Source: a virus. Taken from it: a stretch of 64,000 nucleotides of DNA. The notes below the pieces were generated by a model. It did not search any database and had not been told where the DNA came from. It saw only the letters and a program-made list of their open reading frames with translations. This document shows positions 13,878 through 38,938 of the stretch, piece after piece (the first letter of the stretch is position 1; the number at the start of each line of letters is the position of its first letter). A program made the translations under genes and the position numbers. The stretch lies in UHGV virus genome UHGV-0167633; one strand, 5' to 3'.

Positions 13878-14044
13878 GTATTTTTAAGTCGCGAATGCTA
13901 TCTTTTCGCATCATATTGACCTTTTAATCGTTCAGGCTTATAGTTCCGCCGTCGTAGCAAATTCTGCGACCGGGTTTAGCAGCCTGAATGATTGTGCGGA
14001 CAGCCGCAGATATCCGATATTGCGGTATTTTTGTGTCCGTAAAA

Positions 14045-14175
14045 CCGCGTTACGCCCAAATTATGGTGGGGCGTGATGGGGAGGCTTCGGCCTGCTGGTT
14101 TCACAATCGCCAGTCTGCTAACCCCGTCACGTCCTGCCACCTGTTTAGCAGCGGGTAGCAGGTTGTTAAACCTGA
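14045..14175 (+). ncRNA. candidate c4-like antisense regulatory RNA
   Basis: ORF-free, densely hairpinned segment between operator and icd (CGCCC/GGGCG, GGCTTCGGCC tetraloop, CTGCTAA/TTAGCAG, CAGGTT/AACCTG adjacent to icd RBS); position as in P1 c4. Confidence 0.3.
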
Positions 14176-19035: not shown

Positions 19036-19217
19036 TACACCCGCTGCGGTGTGCTTGGGGCTATCAGCTTCAGGTATTACCCGAAAAGCAGATAGAAGAA
19101 AGCCCCAGTAAACATTATGCGTCCCGCACAACGCTTAACATTAACCGGGGCCATACCTATGCTTAGCGTACTTAGATTAATCCTCTCCTCTGTCAAGGAG
19201 CAAGGAATTTTTTACTG

Positions 19218-19850
19218 CTATGCCGCCTTTCCAGTTATGGATTCTGCGACAAGAACAACCCCATGCTTACTTCGATCCGGATGTTCACTCCATATCTCGG
19301 ATTCAGGAATACTTTCCCCGTCATAGCAAACACGTTCGCCGTCAAACGGGTAATACTGAGCGGCATCGGTGTCGAGGATAAACACTTTTAGCTCGGATGA
19401 GCGACGGGCGATGTGTTGCCAAAGAGCTTTTCCACCTTCGTATTGCTCATTATCACTGAGCAAAACAACACCAGCTTTTGAGGCTACGGTTTCGTAAACA
19501 AAAGTGGCTAAACCGACATCCCGGACGATTCCATCAACCACGATACCTTCAATCTGGGCAACATCGCTATCCTCCCAGAACTTCCTTACCAGTACGCCTT
19601 CAAGCTGCGGGCGACGTTGAAGTTCAAGAGTAGCGACAACCTTATGCCGCATATCACCATCGATAACAGAAGGCGCAGCCTCTATTACAGCTGCAAATGG
19701 GGTTTTGGAATCCCATATAACCTGGTAAAGCACACCCTGGATGGTAACGCCGTCCAGGATCGAAAATCGACGAGCGACAGTACCCGGGGAGTACGACATT
19801 GGAATCACAGCCATTTTAGAGTCCCCCTTTAACAGTACAGGCACAAACAT
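19218..19850 (-). CDS. hypothetical protein (own promoter region and upstream terminator)
   Basis: 210-aa ORF (likely start at MAVIPMSY); preceded by AT-rich region and bidirectional hairpin. Confidence 0.4.
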   Translation of the reverse strand: MFVPVLLKGDSKMAVIPMSYSPGTVARRFSILDGVTIQGVLYQVIWDSKTPFAAVIEAAPSVIDGDMRHKVVATLELQRRPQLEGVLVRKFWEDSDVAQIEGIVVDGIVRDVGLATFVYETVASKAGVVLLSDNEQYEGGKALWQHIARRSSELKVFILDTDAAQYYPFDGERVCYDGESIPESEIWSEHPDRSKHGVVLVAESITGKAA

Positions 19851-33700: not shown

Positions 33701-35961
33701 AAGAGCTGTGCTATGGATCTGTTTGCAGTGGAATTGAAGCCGCGAGTGTTGCCTGGGAACCGTTGGGTATGCGTCCGGCGTGGTTTGCTGAAATCGAGCC
33801 TTTTCCATCTGCCGTTCTTGCGCACCGCTGGCCCCATGTCGCCAACCTTGGCGATATGACAAAACTTGCCAAAAAAGTCCTGGCTGGGGAAATCGAATCC
33901 CCTGATGTGCTCGTCGGGGGAACACCTTGTCAGGCATTCAGTATCGCTGGATTACGTGGTGGGCTTGATGATGAGCGTGGCGCGCTAACTTTAAAGTATG
34001 TGGAGCTTGCAAATGCAATTGACGACAAACGGGCTGAGTCATTTCTCAAACCGACAGTTATCGTCTGGGAAAATGTCCCAGGAGTCCTGTCATCGGCAGA
34101 TAACGCCTTCGGATGTTTCCTTGCCGGATTGGCTGGAGAAGATGCGCCATTTGAACCAGGTGATCGACCTGAATCAGGAAAAAGTAACGCGTTCTGGCGG
34201 TGGGATGGCAAAACCGGTTGCCATGCTCCAAAGTGGCCGCAGTGTGGTTGTATTTATGGACCGCAGCGAAAGGTGGCCTGGAGAATCCTTGATGCCCAAT
34301 ACTTCGGAGTGGCACAACGACGCCGACGCGTGTTTGTTGTCGCAAGTGCTCGAACAGACCTCGATCCCGCAACGGTACTTTTTGAGTTCGAAGGCGTGCG
34401 CCGGAATATTGCGCCGAGCCGAAAAAAGAAGGAAATCGCTTCCGCCATTATTGCAAATGGCGCTGCAATCAGTGGCGAAAGCCTAAATCCATGCCTACAC
34501 GCTGACATGCCACCCGGTATGAAATCGACGAAAGCCGTAAACGCTTTCAGGATGGCAGCATTTGGGGAATATATTGACGATGAAACCGCATCGACAGTAA
34601 AGGCAAGAGATTTTAAAGATGCCACTGACCTTGCCGTTTTTAGCAGCACAGGAGCAGGTTTTTGGTCAGAAGGGCATGGTACATTGCGGGCACGTGAGCA
34701 AGAAAGCCATGAGCATCTTGTTACATTGGCTTTTCCTGAGCGTATGAGCGGTACACAACATGCTGCAACTAAGAATACTTCACCATCTCTAATGGCTAAA
34801 AATCCAACAGCTGTTTGCTATGAAGTAAGAAACGCAGAAGTAGCTGTCCGCCGTCTTACCCCTATCGAATGTGAAAGGCTGCAAGGTTTTCCTGATGGGC
34901 ATACGTTGATCCCGACGGAAAAGCGTAAAAAAGTTAATTCAGATGAACTGGCATATCTTCGCAATCACTATCCAGATTTAAGCGAAGAAGAGGCCGCGAT
35001 GTTTGCAGCTGACGGACCGCGTTACAAAGCGATCGGCAATAGTATGGCGATACCAGTAATGCGCTGGATTGGCGAGCGGATTACCAAGGCTGCATGTCGG
35101 CAGAATGAAGGGCGTGAAACAAAAGAGCGAAAAGTTAAACCTGCGGCAGAATTCGAACGGTCCATATTCAAATGGGCTGGTGGAAAATTTGGTGTTCTGG
35201 AACAAATCTTTCGCTATTTGCCAGAAGGGAAGCGCCTAATTGAACCTTTTGTCGGTGGCGGATCTGTCTTCACGAATGCCGGATACCAGGAAAATCTGCT
35301 AAATGATGTGAATGCTGACCTGATTAACTTTTACAAGACTCTGCAACGCGAGGCGCATTCACTTATCACTCTGGCACATCGTTTCTTCCAGGACTACAAC
35401 ACACAGGAAGGATACCTGGCAGTACGGAATGCGTTTAACAAACAAGTCTATGATGATTTACATCGCGCAGCGGCGTTTTTGTTCCTGAACCGACATTGTT
35501 TTAACGGATTGACGCGTTACAACCAGGCCGGTGAGTTCAATGTCGGTTATGGGAAGTATAAAACTCCGTATTTCCCATTACAGGAGATGGAAGCCTTCCT
35601 CGGTGCGGAAGGGCGGTCTGAGTTTGTATGCGGTGATTTTGCAGCGGTGATTGAAGCTGCCGGAGAAGGAGATGTCATCTTTTGCGATCCGCCGTATGAA
35701 CCGCTTCCAAATACAGAGGGATTCACGAACTATTCCGGTCATGACTTTAAGTTTGAAGAGCAAAAACGCCTGGTGTCTCTGTTGACGGATGCTCATCGTC
35801 GAGGTGCAAAGGTTCTCATTACTAACAGTGGCGCGCCAAACATCAGAGAGCTTTATCATGACAGTGGCTTCAGAGTGGAACCTCTTTTTGCCAGACGTTC
35901 TGTGTCTTGTAAGGGGGACACTCGAGGTGTAGCTCATGACGTTCTGGGCATATTGCTCTAA
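33697..35961 (+). CDS. dmt: bifunctional DNA methyltransferase (N-terminal C5-cytosine MTase fused to C-terminal Dam-type N6-adenine MTase)
   Basis: 754-aa ORF; C5-MTase motif [12 protein letters not shown] near N-terminus, ENV motif, and DPPY (CDPPYEPL) in C-terminal half. Confidence 0.85.
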
Positions 35962-35968
35962 TAAATTT
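35952..35968 (+). promoter_or_regulatory. C1-repressor-type operator (perfect 17-mer)
   Basis: ATTGCTCTAATAAATTT overlapping the dmt stop codon, upstream of the tRNA/tciA/ban region; embedded in 16-bp palindrome CTAATAAATTTATTAG. Confidence 0.6.
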
Positions 35969-36143
35969 ATTAGTGTAATATCGCCTCAATGAATCGTGAT
36001 TTATAGAGCGATTTAGCTGTTAGCCGCGACAGGCGCGGCGGCAAGTATGGCGGGGTAGTGACTCCTTCCCCATCATGACGCCGAGTTGCCAGGTTGACCA
36101 TACGCCTAAGTGGTAACACCGAAGTGCGTTACGAGCTTCCAGT

Positions 36144-36171
36144 TTGCCCATCTTCGGGTGGGCGTTTTTTT
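36144..36171 (+). terminator. rho-independent terminator
   Basis: GCCCATC-TTCG-GGTGGGC followed by GTTTTTTTT. Confidence 0.55.
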
Positions 36172-36637
36172 TCAGGGTTTTCGTCATGGTTAGCGACTTT
36201 GCGGCGGTTTAGAAACTGACCATTAAAGTAAATGCAAACGATGATCTGATGATGGTAGCGGCCTAAGAAGCCAGACGCCACGGGGTATGAGTCGTCCCCC
36301 GTCAAAAAATCGACCGCAGAGTGTCCCCGTCTGTGTATTAGGGAACGGGGAGGCTTAACAGGCAAGGGCGCTGGTGTGATTAACCAGATGAACGAGAAGG
36401 GGCTATCTGTTGGTCAGCGTCCTTACCTGTTACGTCCTTTTTCATTCAGCGTAACAGCCATTGCTTAATGGCATCCTGGGAGAATTTCTTGTAACGGGTA
36501 TATCCCGTCATGCTGAAGGCGCTAATCACGCTGGAAGCCAGGGTTGTGCATCCCCTGTTACCGAATTGCAGCCAGGGCGCGGTGCGCCGAAAAGCATACG
36601 GAGGTGGAAGCCCTCGCCGGAGACGTACCCGGCAAGT

Positions 36638-36713
36638 GATGGTGTAGCTCAGCGGTTAGAGCGGTTGACTGTTAATCAACGGGTCGATGGTTCAAATCCA
36701 TCCACCATCGCCA
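36638..36713 (+). tRNA. tRNA-Asn (anticodon GTT)
   Basis: 76 nt; 7-bp acceptor GATGGTG/CACCATC, D-arm TAGCTCAGCGGTTAGAGC, anticodon loop CTGTTAA, T-arm GATGGTTCAAATCCATC, encoded CCA. Confidence 0.85.
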
Positions 36714-36715
36714 AT

Positions 36716-36791
36716 GCCGGTTTAGCTCAGTTGGTAGAGCGCCTGCCTTGTAAGCAGGATGTCAGCGGTTCGAGTCCGTTAATCGGCACCA
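36716..36791 (+). tRNA. tRNA-Thr (anticodon TGT)
   Basis: 76 nt; acceptor GCCGGTT/AATCGGC, anticodon loop CTTGTAA, T-loop GGTTCGAGTCC, encoded CCA. Confidence 0.85.
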
Positions 36792-36792
36792 G

Positions 36793-36879
36793 CACAACAG
36801 GTAAGGGTATTTTGCGACGTCGGAGATCGCCGAGCTTGGCAGAGGGTTCGAATCCCTACGAAGTACCCTTACCGTTGTG
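36793..36879 (+). repeat. long-hairpin element, copy 1 (16-bp stem enclosing T-loop-like GGTTCGAATCC)
   Basis: CACAACAGGTAAGGGTA ... TACCCTTACCGTTGTG, immediately after tRNA-Thr CCA end. Confidence 0.5.
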
Positions 36880-37017
36880 AGGAAGCGCAGCTCTTTGAAG
36901 CAACCAGAAGATAAGCATCTGGCTTCACAACATAAACCGCAGGAACGACCAATAAACGGTAGTCCGTATGGAGAACACCCCGTTGAGGAAGAGGCCTGGC
37001 CGGAACCGTAACCGGCA

Positions 37018-37113
37018 CTACAACGTTGAGAACACTGGCGTAACGGGGTCATATCCCAATCTACGAATAAATGTTGCGTTGCCGCGTGACAACCAGTGTT
37101 CTCAACATTGTGG
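37018..37113 (+). repeat. long-hairpin element, copy 2
   Basis: CTACAACGTTGAGAACACTGG ... CCAGTGTTCTCAACATTGTGG (19/21 bp paired), followed by TGAATGC. Confidence 0.5.
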
Positions 37114-37294
37114 TGAATGCACAGGCTGATGTGCCGCAACTACAGTAGTGCGCGCTTTGCGGGGCTTGCTACAACCCTGTGTCGGAATTCAGCACCGACC
37201 ATCACAGTTTGATTCTCTGGCATGAGCATAACGCTGAAATAAGTCCAGTCTGGTGCGGTCTGATCACCCGCCGTTAGCTCCACGATACGGAGCG

Positions 37295-37382
37295 CACAAC
37301 AGGTAAGAGTATTTGTAGAGTTCGACTCTCTACCGTGGGCTTTTTCCCGCGATGCGAGCCATAAATGCTCTTTCCGTTGTGG
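37295..37382 (+). repeat. long-hairpin element, copy 3 (contains T-arm-like GTAGAG-TTCGACT-CTCTAC)
   Basis: CACAACAGGTAAGAGTA ... TGCTCTTTCCGTTGTGG, followed by TGAATGC. Confidence 0.5.
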
Positions 37383-37534
37383 TGAATGCGCGTTGCTAGC
37401 GCGCAAGTCCGCCCTATGGCAACGAGGCGGCGTAGTAAATATCGATGCCTCAGTCATCAAGCGCACTGACCGGCCTTATGGGCTATGAAAAAAAGAGGCG
37501 CAGTCGGAGATCAGCACCGACCACCACAATCACT

Positions 37535-37621
37535 GGAGAGTAGGGAGCATGGTGCTCAAGCGGTCTTGAAAGCCGTCCCGTTGCGCAAGCGATGATGGTT
37601 CGATTCCATTACTCTCCGCCA
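37535..37621 (+). tRNA. tRNA-Ser(TGA)-like sequence (possibly a pseudo-tRNA)
   Basis: Perfect 7-bp acceptor GGAGAGT/ACTCTCC + G + CCA; T-arm GATGG-TTCGATT-CCATT; anticodon arm GCGGT-CTTGAAA-GCCGT (anticodon TGA); long variable region; D-arm non-canonical. Confidence 0.35.
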
Positions 37622-37622
37622 T

Positions 37623-37735
37623 CGCAACGTTAAGAGTATTTGGCTAATTAAGCGAATGCCGGAAGCAGAACCGGATCACCAAATGCGTACAGGCGTCATC
37701 GCCGCTCAGTCAGCCAAATGCTCTTACCATTGCGG
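37623..37735 (+). repeat. long-hairpin element, copy 4
   Basis: CGCAACGTTAAGAGTAT ... ATGCTCTTACCATTGCGG, immediately after the tRNA-Ser-like CCA end, followed by TGAATGC. Confidence 0.45.
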
Positions 37736-37884
37736 TGAATGCGGCTAAGCGCACGCGGGGAAATGGTTATATCAGTCCATTCATTTCTCCTTGTTTCCCC
37801 GTCCACGGTGGATAACCAGCCAAAGGACACCGGGAGGCACCCGGCACCGCAACCTTATTTCCCAACCAGTAATGAGGTTAATAA

Positions 37885-38310
37885 ATGCTCGGCATTCTCA
37901 AAAAGAAATTCCGCAAAGCGGCTGGCGGAGTCAAGAAGATGGAAAACCGTGATGCGGTGGAAGCGACCGTCTGGGGCGCATATTCCATTGCATACTCTGA
38001 CGGCACCTGCGATGCGAAAGAAATTGCAGTATTGGAAAAAACCATTGCAGCACTTCCTGCCTTTGCGCCCTTCTCCGGTGAAATTGCCCAGATGAGCGCC
38101 AATATTCGCGCTCAATATGAAGCCTCGCCGCGCCGAGCTAATGCCCAGGCTTTACGTGAGCTGGCTGATGTGTCCGGGACTAATGATGCGGTAGATGTTC
38201 TGTGCCTATGCATTGATATTGCTGACCAGGATGGCATTGGGGCTGAAGAGCAGGAGCAATTGAAGAAAATTGCCCAAGCTCTTCAATTGCCACTGGAACA
38301 GTATGTCTGA
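37885..38310 (+). CDS. tciA: TerB-like protein
   Basis: 141-aa ORF with TerB-type helical pattern; position as P1 tciA after the tRNA cluster. Confidence 0.55.
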   Translation: MLGILKKKFRKAAGGVKKMENRDAVEATVWGAYSIAYSDGTCDAKEIAVLEKTIAALPAFAPFSGEIAQMSANIRAQYEASPRRANAQALRELADVSGTNDAVDVLCLCIDIADQDGIGAEEQEQLKKIAQALQLPLEQYV

Positions 38311-38474
38311 TGGTTATAAAAGCACGTTTAATTCTAGCTTTGGTCTTTCTCGTGCTATCTGTGCTGGTGGATTTCACCAGCACAATCCTGTCAGTTTTAT
38401 CGGACGGGGCGTTGGTGGCAGTAGCTGTAACATTGGTATGGCCGATATTTAAAACAGCTTCGAAGGATCAGTGA
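38310..38474 (+). CDS. small membrane protein (54 aa)
   Basis: ATG overlaps tciA stop (TGATG); MVIKARLILALVFLVLSVLVDFTSTILSVLSDGALVAVAVTLVWPIFKTASKDQ. Track lists a different frame here. Confidence 0.35.
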   Translation: MVIKARLILALVFLVLSVLVDFTSTILSVLSDGALVAVAVTLVWPIFKTASKDQ

Positions 38475-38581
38475 TGGGCTTCTGGGATTTTGCTGACAAG
38501 CATCCAATTGTTCTCGTTGTCATTGCTGGCATAGTTGTAGGCGGTATTGCTGGCGTCATAGAAGCACTCAGGAAACAGTAA
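38474..38581 (+). CDS. small membrane protein (35 aa)
   Basis: ATG overlaps previous stop; MGFWDFADKHPIVLVVIAGIVVGGIAGVIEALRKQ; ends 3 nt before tRNA. Confidence 0.3.
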   Translation: MGFWDFADKHPIVLVVIAGIVVGGIAGVIEALRKQ

Positions 38582-38584
38582 TCC

Positions 38585-38660
38585 GGCCCTTTAGCTCAGT
38601 GGTTAGAGCTGGCGACTCATAATCGCACGGTCACCGGTTCAAGTCCGGTAGGGGCCACCA
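38585..38660 (+). tRNA. tRNA with CAT anticodon (Ile-lysidine or Met type)
   Basis: 76 nt; acceptor GGCCCTT/AGGGGCC, anticodon loop CTCATAA, T-loop GGTTCAAGTCC, encoded CCA. Confidence 0.8.
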
Positions 38661-38938
38661 TATTTGGTTGTAACACGGCGTCTGGCACATGCGTCGTTAG
38701 CGGTCTGGTGACGTTAAAGGGGTAACCTTTCCCCTAGCTCAGGCAACAAACCAGGTAGCCGGAATGTGCAAGTCACCGTTGGTAGGATAGCGGATTCAGG
38801 GACTCACCATCCTGGCGATTCGGTGTGACAGCCGGGAAGAGTCCGGCGCATTAATCCTGATTTTCTGGTGATGACTCATATCGTTAGGAGTGATTTGAGT
38901 ATGCCGATTATATCTGACATTCAGCACGCCTGGGTGGA

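Follow-up and report, generated by a model that had tools for sequence, protein, structure and literature searches.

A DicF-locus-type cassette and an RNA resembling the body of tmRNA in the repressor-controlled ban/tRNA leader of a P1-like phage

The described systems closest to the locus analysed here are the DicF locus of Qin and other lambdoid prophages (Rfam RF00039), tmRNA (SsrA; RF00023, with the two-piece forms RF01849 and RF04321) and the ban operon leader of phages P1 and P7. DicF is a product of the dicB operon and arises by termination together with processing by RNase E and RNase III. The E. coli tmRNA encodes the tag ANDENYALAA, and several phages depend on the host tmRNA. The P1 record annotates Obanab (formerly Op72ab), a bivalent operator, which together with the promoters P1ban and P2ban overlaps the dmt stop codon and is stated to control ban; in the P7 record, the same operator is stated to control the tRNAs and ban. 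From a 'dicF-like region' to tRNA-Asn nothing is annotated in either record, and besides that label the ban leader of P1, a textbook phage, has so far been treated as empty.

The DNA stretch that was analysed (64,000 nt of the virus genome UHGV-0167633, referred to as the window) corresponded to a P1/P7-like phage, and the interval 35969-36637 was its ORF-free leader between dmt and tRNA-Asn. By BLAST, the region 35900-36700 matched P7 and P1 over its full length with 94.4 and 93.3% identity, respectively, and the features annotated under these matches were the end of dmt, the C1 operators, the promoters, the 'dicF-like region' and tRNA-Asn. By alignment, the operators and promoters transferred from P1 to the window unchanged. 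The C1 operator consensus, ATTGCTCTAATAAATTT, is asymmetric and 17 bp long. Op72a (Oban-a), at 35952-35968 on the plus strand, matched it at 17 of 17 positions and overlapped the dmt stop codon, and Op72b (Oban-b, ATTACACTAATAAATTT), at 35963-35979 on the minus strand, matched at 15 of 17 with two mismatches and was bivalent with Op72a. Seven sites of the C1 operator type were present in the window compared to 0.03 expected by chance. An earlier note, made from the sequence alone, had the interval begin at a perfect C1-type operator; the perfect site was found, ending one base before 35969. The promoter P1ban (35953-35981, plus strand), with a −35 element TTGCTC at 35953-35958 and a −10 element TAATAT at 35976-35981, was identical to that of P1 by alignment and was missed by a strict consensus promoter scan. 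From its position, transcription would start near 35988. The first and second payload genes of the operon were tRNA-Asn (36638-36713, plus strand) and tRNA-Thr (36716-36791, plus strand). Downstream of tRNA-Thr, the segment 36792-37880 followed the arrangement of P7 and not that of P1: the P1 genes plp and upl were absent, and a tRNA-Ser(TGA) was present at 37535-37621 as in P7.

With a probability of roughly 0.6, the ban/tRNA operon, repressed by C1, has this interval as its non-coding leader, which is no spacer but an array of RNA modules, including a DicF-type cassette and a tmRNA-body-like RNA that acts on trans-translation. When C1 leaves Op72a/b, P1ban would fire, and the first ~185 nt of the transcript would constitute a cassette of the DicF-locus type, in which a conserved module is followed by a P1-specific terminator hairpin and U8. 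Some transcripts would end at this terminator, yielding a repressor-controlled small RNA that would be a positional analogue of DicF with a different seed. Transcripts that read through would carry a ~177-nt RNA mimicking the body of tmRNA, next a long hairpin of the processing type, then the conserved leader ahead of the tRNAs, the tRNAs themselves and, last, ban.

The ORFs of the interval were short (at most 78 aa), in addition to one of 139 aa that ran through the tRNA genes, and no ORF of the interval matched a PHROG family. In the alignment of the window with P1 and P7, the minus-strand ORFs were broken by changes in the length of a T-run (6-8) and by an A-run indel in P7. That the interval codes for small proteins, as implied by the 'hypothetical protein' entries under the match in SJ46, JL22 and some plasmid records, is very improbable: ORFs of 41-78 aa are indeed present, but they lack PHROG matches, their frames are disrupted by homopolymer-run indels between close relatives, and conservation tracks RNA helices rather than codons. 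The earlier description of about 670 bp without a credible ORF was thus upheld.

A part of the leader was matched by BLAST in 4413 of 5426 complete E. coli genomes. When chromosomal matches were sampled from rows across the ranking, 34 of 35 covered positions 36024-36121 at ~80% identity. In the K-12-type Qin prophage and in Sakai Sp11, the match was located between ydfC and dicB and ended 24 nt before the Rfam-verified DicF. This plus-strand segment, termed here the upstream module, was ~81% identical to Qin/Sp11 and many E. coli chromosomes and is homologous to the sequence that directly precedes DicF in lambdoid prophages. The alignment further indicated that this homology does not extend to DicF itself; P1-like phages have a different terminator element of ~50 nt at its place. 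The consensus fold of the module comprised four helices, namely CCGCG/CGCGG, CGGC/GCCG, which surrounds a variable hairpin (UCCUU loop), and GUUGCCA/UGGCAAC. Two compensatory pairs distinguished the P1 type from the lambdoid type, and the inner hairpin occurred with several alternative stems. A pattern scan recovered at least 120 viral contig stretches carrying the module, and downstream of it these had canonical DicF, the P1-type hairpin or one of several alternative terminator hairpins.

The locus therefore shares with that of DicF a homologous structured module of ~95 nt and, immediately downstream of it, an element of ~50 nt that ends in an intrinsic terminator and lies inside a repressor-controlled phage operon continuing downstream. 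The two differ in that the terminator-bearing element of P1 is not homologous to DicF and has no anti-ftsZ loop, and in that the P1 module begins almost at the transcription start whereas the DicF locus follows three ORFs. The Rfam/Infernal scan proposed by the earlier note gave no match to the DicF model (RF00039) within 35900-38700, even at E≤10; the criterion for the family was at least 48 bits, and Qin and Sp11, as positive controls, scored 75-77 bits. Membership of the DicF family was rejected for the P1-type element on this basis. Among its best pairings ftsZ was absent, and the element had no anti-ftsZ loop or seed. The variant L030 contained a perfect 11-nt anti-ftsZ helix.

The constant position of the upstream module directly before an intrinsic terminator that must be passed, and its structure and conservation across P1-like and lambdoid phages, would also suit a cis-acting read-through element comparable to the put RNAs of HK022, allowing passage toward the tRNAs and ban in P1 or toward dicB in lambdoid prophages. 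This appears improbable, as the proposal is drawn from position, with the likeness to put RNAs by analogy; HK022 was not among the BLAST matches listed for the module, and lambdoid phages with N would have no need of such an element.

The P1-type 3' module occupied the position of DicF at 36122-36172 (plus strand) and consisted of AAGUGCGUUACGAGCUUCCAGUUU, a terminator hairpin and U8, making it a candidate sRNA 3' end. The hairpin had a 7-bp stem with five G-C pairs (36146-36152/36157-36163) and a UUCG loop, and was followed by U8 at 36165-36172, features that classify it as an intrinsic (Rho-independent) terminator. Its folding energy was −12.8 kcal/mol with z = −4.0, and none of 200 shuffled sequences folded as well. 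A consensus terminator scan, taken alone, was not above chance, with two sites compared to 3.6 expected. The hairpin and its 5' flank were nearly invariant across 36 distinct P1-like sequences. The strong terminator previously placed at 36144-36171 was therefore borne out, with the stem now at 36146-36163 and U8 at 36165-36172.

The further proposal that a short repressor-controlled transcript ends at this terminator fared less uniformly. The layout, with ~185 nt from a C1-repressed start, and the homology to the DicF locus speak for it; the need for read-through and the missing match to the DicF model speak against it. Since the operator controls the downstream tRNAs and ban, the terminator cannot end most of the biologically relevant transcription. 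The sRNA idea is thus partly supported, and it had been largely anticipated by the 'dicF-like region' label of P1. By analogy with DicF, a reasonable candidate is an sRNA covering 36122-36172, formed by termination or processing, or else the entire primary transcript of ~185 nt.

It is possible, but on balance doubtful, that the terminator is instead an attenuator or insulator that limits, once repression is lifted, how much transcription reaches the tRNAs and ban, with the leader RNA as a functionless by-product. The operator governs genes ~0.7-3 kb downstream, which places the terminator inside the operon, between the predicted start and the terminator the leader folded barely better than shuffled sequences (z −1.9), and the search for targets gave nothing significant. 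Against this, the same two-part layout yields the functional sRNA DicF in lambdoid prophages, the hairpin with its 5' flank is almost unchanged in P1-like phages, and the decamer GUUUGCCCAU of the P1-type module was also present in the hairpin loop of an unrelated variant at the DicF position (L011).

In the target search, duplex folding energies returned uninformative bulged duplexes, and contiguous-helix scoring was used instead, a method that misses the known, bulged DicF-ftsZ pairing. The 3' module formed a 14-bp helix (−19.4 kcal/mol) with the ftsB start region, the best among 47 real translation start regions. A helix of this strength was reached by two of 3000 shuffled start regions, equivalent to ~3 chance hits per E. 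coli genome, and scanning both strands of the window (128 kb) revealed three helices as strong. The seed was altered in a P1-like variant (L221). With chance-level pairing genome-wide, equally strong helices in the window and the seed change in L221, ftsB was rejected as an sRNA target and kept as a lead only.

Two further observations concern exchange at the DicF position. The variants L011 and L041 belong to the same 96-kb viral contig, which thus has two copies of the DicF upstream module; one copy is followed by a DicF-like hairpin with the loop UCUGUUUGCCCAUGAAC, which shares GUUUGCCCAU with the P1-type module. In the P1-like contig L221 (~1395-1570), the leader had another 3' module, GGGATATTTGCCCACCTTCGGGTGGGTG followed by T6, and the tRNA array was longer (Asn, Tyr, Thr, Ser, Met). 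If the small-RNA reading of the cassette holds, phages build and exchange small RNAs in modular fashion, a fixed structured module being combined with interchangeable terminator hairpins in lambdoid and P1 phages alike.

Two thirds of the interval are taken up by three elements that went unrecognised in the earlier note: a tmRNA-body-like RNA, a hairpin belonging to a cassette family and the conserved leader ahead of the tRNAs. The tmRNA-like module was the unexpected result, the sRNA idea having been foreshadowed by the P1 annotation. It spans ~36175-36351 on the plus strand (~177 nt), contains a tag frame, a pseudoknot and a hairpin, and has homologues in other phages. At its start is a 5' domain, GGGUUUUCG...UAGAAACUGACCA, which possibly corresponds to PK1. 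The pairings AGUUUU/GAAACU and CUUUG/CAAAG within this domain are plausible; as both strands are nearly invariant, they do not permit a covariation test. The tag frame at 36234-36263 encodes ANDDLMMVAA in 10 codons from a GCA resume codon at 36234, preceded by an AUAAAU context, and its stop codon (36264-36266) lies in a hairpin loop. This is followed by a pseudoknot with stems S1 (36280-36285/36297-36302) and S2 (36291-36294/36311-36314), and by a further hairpin (36324-36330/36345-36351); all three helices covary.

Compensatory replacements occurred repeatedly in both pseudoknot stems and in the last hairpin. Among the examples, ACGGGG/CCCCGT, GCAAGG/CCTTGT and GTGAGG/CCTCAT interchanged, and so did CCGA/TCGG, GTCG/CGAC, CCAG/CTGG and CCAA/TTGG. 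The replacements were extracted by a helix-optimising script and are also visible directly in the alignment. Two additional pairings were considered and rejected. A closing helix between the flanks of the element was discarded, these flanks being arms of the neighbouring hairpin cassettes, and a long-range helix (36189-36196/36523-36530) in the minimum-energy fold was not conserved beyond P1-like phages.

Across phages, 131 copies of the element reduced to 47 distinct tag regions. All 47 had exactly 10 codons in the GCA frame with the form AN(D/E)...(A/V)A, and codon 10 was Ala in 46 of them; other frames differed in length. Tags in other phages included ANDNEFKVAA, ANDDVVLMAA and ANDNTFLAVA. 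The opening 8 bases of this frame had been preset by the search pattern, and the last codons lie within a stem; the regularities therefore suggest, and do not prove, selection on the tag peptide.

A BLAST search with 36173-36637 matched 292 phage records, and outside the P1-like phages the matches were confined to 36176-36352 at 70-85% identity. The carriers included Ackermannviridae, N4-like Schitoviridae, several siphoviruses, P1-like phages and an Aeromonas phage. Among 185,579 species, each represented by one genome, only five full-length copies were found; the element is almost absent from bacterial chromosomes. Four contexts were opened: in three the element lay in unannotated DNA upstream of tRNA genes, and in one it lay under small 'hypothetical' ORFs. 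Same-strand tRNA genes followed within 1.5 kb downstream in about half of the contexts examined. Phage tRNA arrays include tRNA-like elements that ARAGORN does not call; the tmRNA-like element differs from such arrays in not being a tRNA and in occurring also without any tRNA nearby. In other phages a promoter-like site of its own was located directly upstream of the element. In phage STGO-35-1 (NC_054648; L251, 23808-24440 on the minus strand, equivalent to L130, 1455-2100 on the plus strand), a self-contained unit ran antisense to the flanking structural genes, with a TTGACA-17-TAGATT promoter-like site, the tmRNA-like element, a cassette hairpin, tRNA-Met and a terminator-like hairpin in this order. 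No description of tag peptides or of a tmRNA-like element in such phages was found in the literature, the coverage of which was incomplete. Two tRNA-related features were also noted in N4-like phages and their surroundings. In phage Bp4 (NC_024142; L128, 1310-1381), ARAGORN called a tRNA-Ala(CGC), unannotated in the record, ~110 nt upstream of the element, and in N4-like relatives the element was followed by runs of tRNA-like elements bearing T-arms (e.g. L213).

The phage element and tmRNA have in common a GCA alanine resume codon without a start codon, an AUA-containing context upstream of it, a tag of 10 codons that begins AND.. and closes with alanines, and a hairpin whose loop holds the stop codon, with an H-type pseudoknot after it. 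Their tag regions also cross-matched in both directions. With the Rfam tmRNA_permuted model, which has a gathering score of 47, the element of the window reached 26.1 bits and those of other phages 29-33 bits, compared to 32.7 bits for E. coli ssrA. None of the phage elements tested reached the gathering score of a tmRNA family, and neither ARAGORN nor Rfam called a tmRNA in the window or in the ~90 homologue contexts. In the reverse direction, a covariance model (R1) was built from the phage copies, each of which it finds once. Its best match in a 12-kb E. coli locus was the tag region of ssrA (E 1.4e-4), and on a viral contig, L222, it also matched the tag region of a permuted tmRNA verified by Rfam (E 1e-8). 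The alignment of R1 to ssrA placed the stop codon in the hairpin loop, after which the covarying pseudoknot follows, and the tag frame runs from an Ala codon, with neither start codon nor Shine-Dalgarno sequence, to a hydrophobic/alanine end. The tmRNA on L222 (4127-4477) was itself a two-piece form scoring 121.6 bits in Rfam and missed by ARAGORN; its tag was ANDNVASRYALAA, and it had the exact pre-tag context GACCAUUAAUCUAAAUGCAAACGAU common to the phage elements.

The element departs from tmRNA in lacking the acceptor stem, T-arm and CCA, so that it is not chargeable, in its length (~177 compared to 363 nt) and smaller number of pseudoknots, and in being essentially restricted to phages, where it heads arrays of tRNAs or hairpin cassettes. 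No tRNA-like domain (acceptor stem with G3-U70, T-arm and 3' CCA) was found for it. In the complete STGO-35-1 genome, which had only the element and one tRNA-Met, no such domain was found elsewhere. A hidden tRNA-like partner was sought among orphan T-arms nearby, in hairpins upstream, in the element at 36793-36878 and across the complete sequence of STGO-35-1; none was consistent, and the idea was dropped. With no tRNA-like domain, the tmRNA-like RNA cannot start trans-translation alone.

This lack, the location among degenerate tRNA-like elements and the scores below the Rfam thresholds would fit a decaying, functionless remnant of a tmRNA gene that once headed phage tRNA arrays and was spread by recombination. 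Such an origin is less likely than an action on trans-translation, and we regard it as improbable in its own right: full length is kept in the 292 phage records from unrelated families, three helices show compensatory changes, the 10-codon frame is intact in all 47 variants, some phages provide a dedicated promoter-like site, and the element was the best-conserved part of the leader among the 36 distinct P1-like sequences. The most likely reading is that the tmRNA-like module acts on the host trans-translation machinery, at SmpB or the ribosomal mRNA channel. This is favoured because the RNA keeps those parts of tmRNA that are in or near the ribosomal mRNA path, without the charged part. It would be a mimic, a competitor, or a template dependent on a tRNA-like partner in trans.

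A bolder combination of these elements can be formulated and is speculative, in our estimate unlikely. The segment 36175-36351 and its relatives would be a phage-specific tmRNA module without a tRNA domain, which ribosomes would read in infected cells with the help of a trans-acting partner, either a phage tRNA-like RNA or host tmRNA/SmpB. Stalled translation products of host or phage would thereby carry tags of the phage's choosing (ANDDLMMVAA, ANDDVVLMAA, ANDEQFLAVA and others) in place of ANDENYALAA. The terminator RNA would in addition be a seed-swapped DicF analogue targeting start codons in the context AUGGG(C/U)AAAC, as found in the division gene ftsB.

If the action on trans-translation is correct, phages of Enterobacterales and Aeromonas, temperate as well as virulent, carry an RNA modelled on the template portion of tmRNA, the ribosome-rescue RNA. 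Such a phage-encoded mimic or template would make the dependence on host tmRNA directly testable, and hundreds of phage annotations, which show an empty gap or a 'hypothetical protein' at the element, could be corrected.

Immediately after the tmRNA-like RNA, a 78-nt hairpin of the cassette family, CACAACAGGTAAG...CTTACCGTTGTG, was present at 36355-36432 (plus strand), with arms at 36357-36367 and 36421-36431. Folding of 36353-36434 gave −34.1 kcal/mol with z = −4.1, and z was −2.9 for 36173-36637, in agreement with the several stable hairpins reported from first inspection. The motif said to recur in the downstream hairpin family was likewise recovered: an exact copy of AACAGGTAAGG occupied 36421-36431 (minus strand), and AACAGGCAAGG was located at 36357-36367 (plus strand), the two being the arms of one hairpin. 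With at most one mismatch, the motif had six matches in the window compared to 0.81 expected. The family, CACAACAGGTAAG...CTTACCGTTGTGGTGAATGC, recurs downstream in the window, and in unrelated phages its arms are likewise found after the tmRNA-like element. In lambdoid prophages, the sequence of the cassette 3' arm is present ahead of the DicF upstream module as well. By their resemblance, the long cassette stems may be processing sites. The rest of the pre-tRNA leader (36433-36637, plus strand) contained a hairpin at ~36457-36472, in place of which P1 and P7 have a different one, and was nearly invariant among P1-like phages from 36500 to 36637.

Several elements were observed further downstream. 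At 36793-36878 there was a tRNA-like element not called by ARAGORN, with a long stem, ACAACAGGTAAGGGTATTTTG / CGAAGTACCCTTACCGTTGT, around the T-arm AGAGGGTTCGAATCCCTAC and a U-G pair at the third acceptor position; the same element directly followed the tmRNA-like RNA in the unrelated contigs L135, L169 and L186. More long-hairpin cassettes were situated between the tRNA genes at 37016-37115, 37294-37385 and 37620-37737, with 3' arms ending in GTTGTGGTGAATGC, and leader-like repeats of GTCGGAGATCAGCACCGACCACCACA were found at 37181-37206 and 37503-37528. The segment 37731-37851 matched the Rfam family STnc100 below threshold (37.8 bits, gathering score 47), and its 5' part, GGTGAATGCGGCTAAGCGCACGCGG, was the sequence that follows DicF in Qin (L003, ~1400-1430). 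Elsewhere in the window, at 13938-14144 and 19049-19222, matches at the Rfam gathering level were obtained for c4-a1b1 targets, for the C4 antisense RNA (immunity region) and for a sok-like antitoxin RNA.
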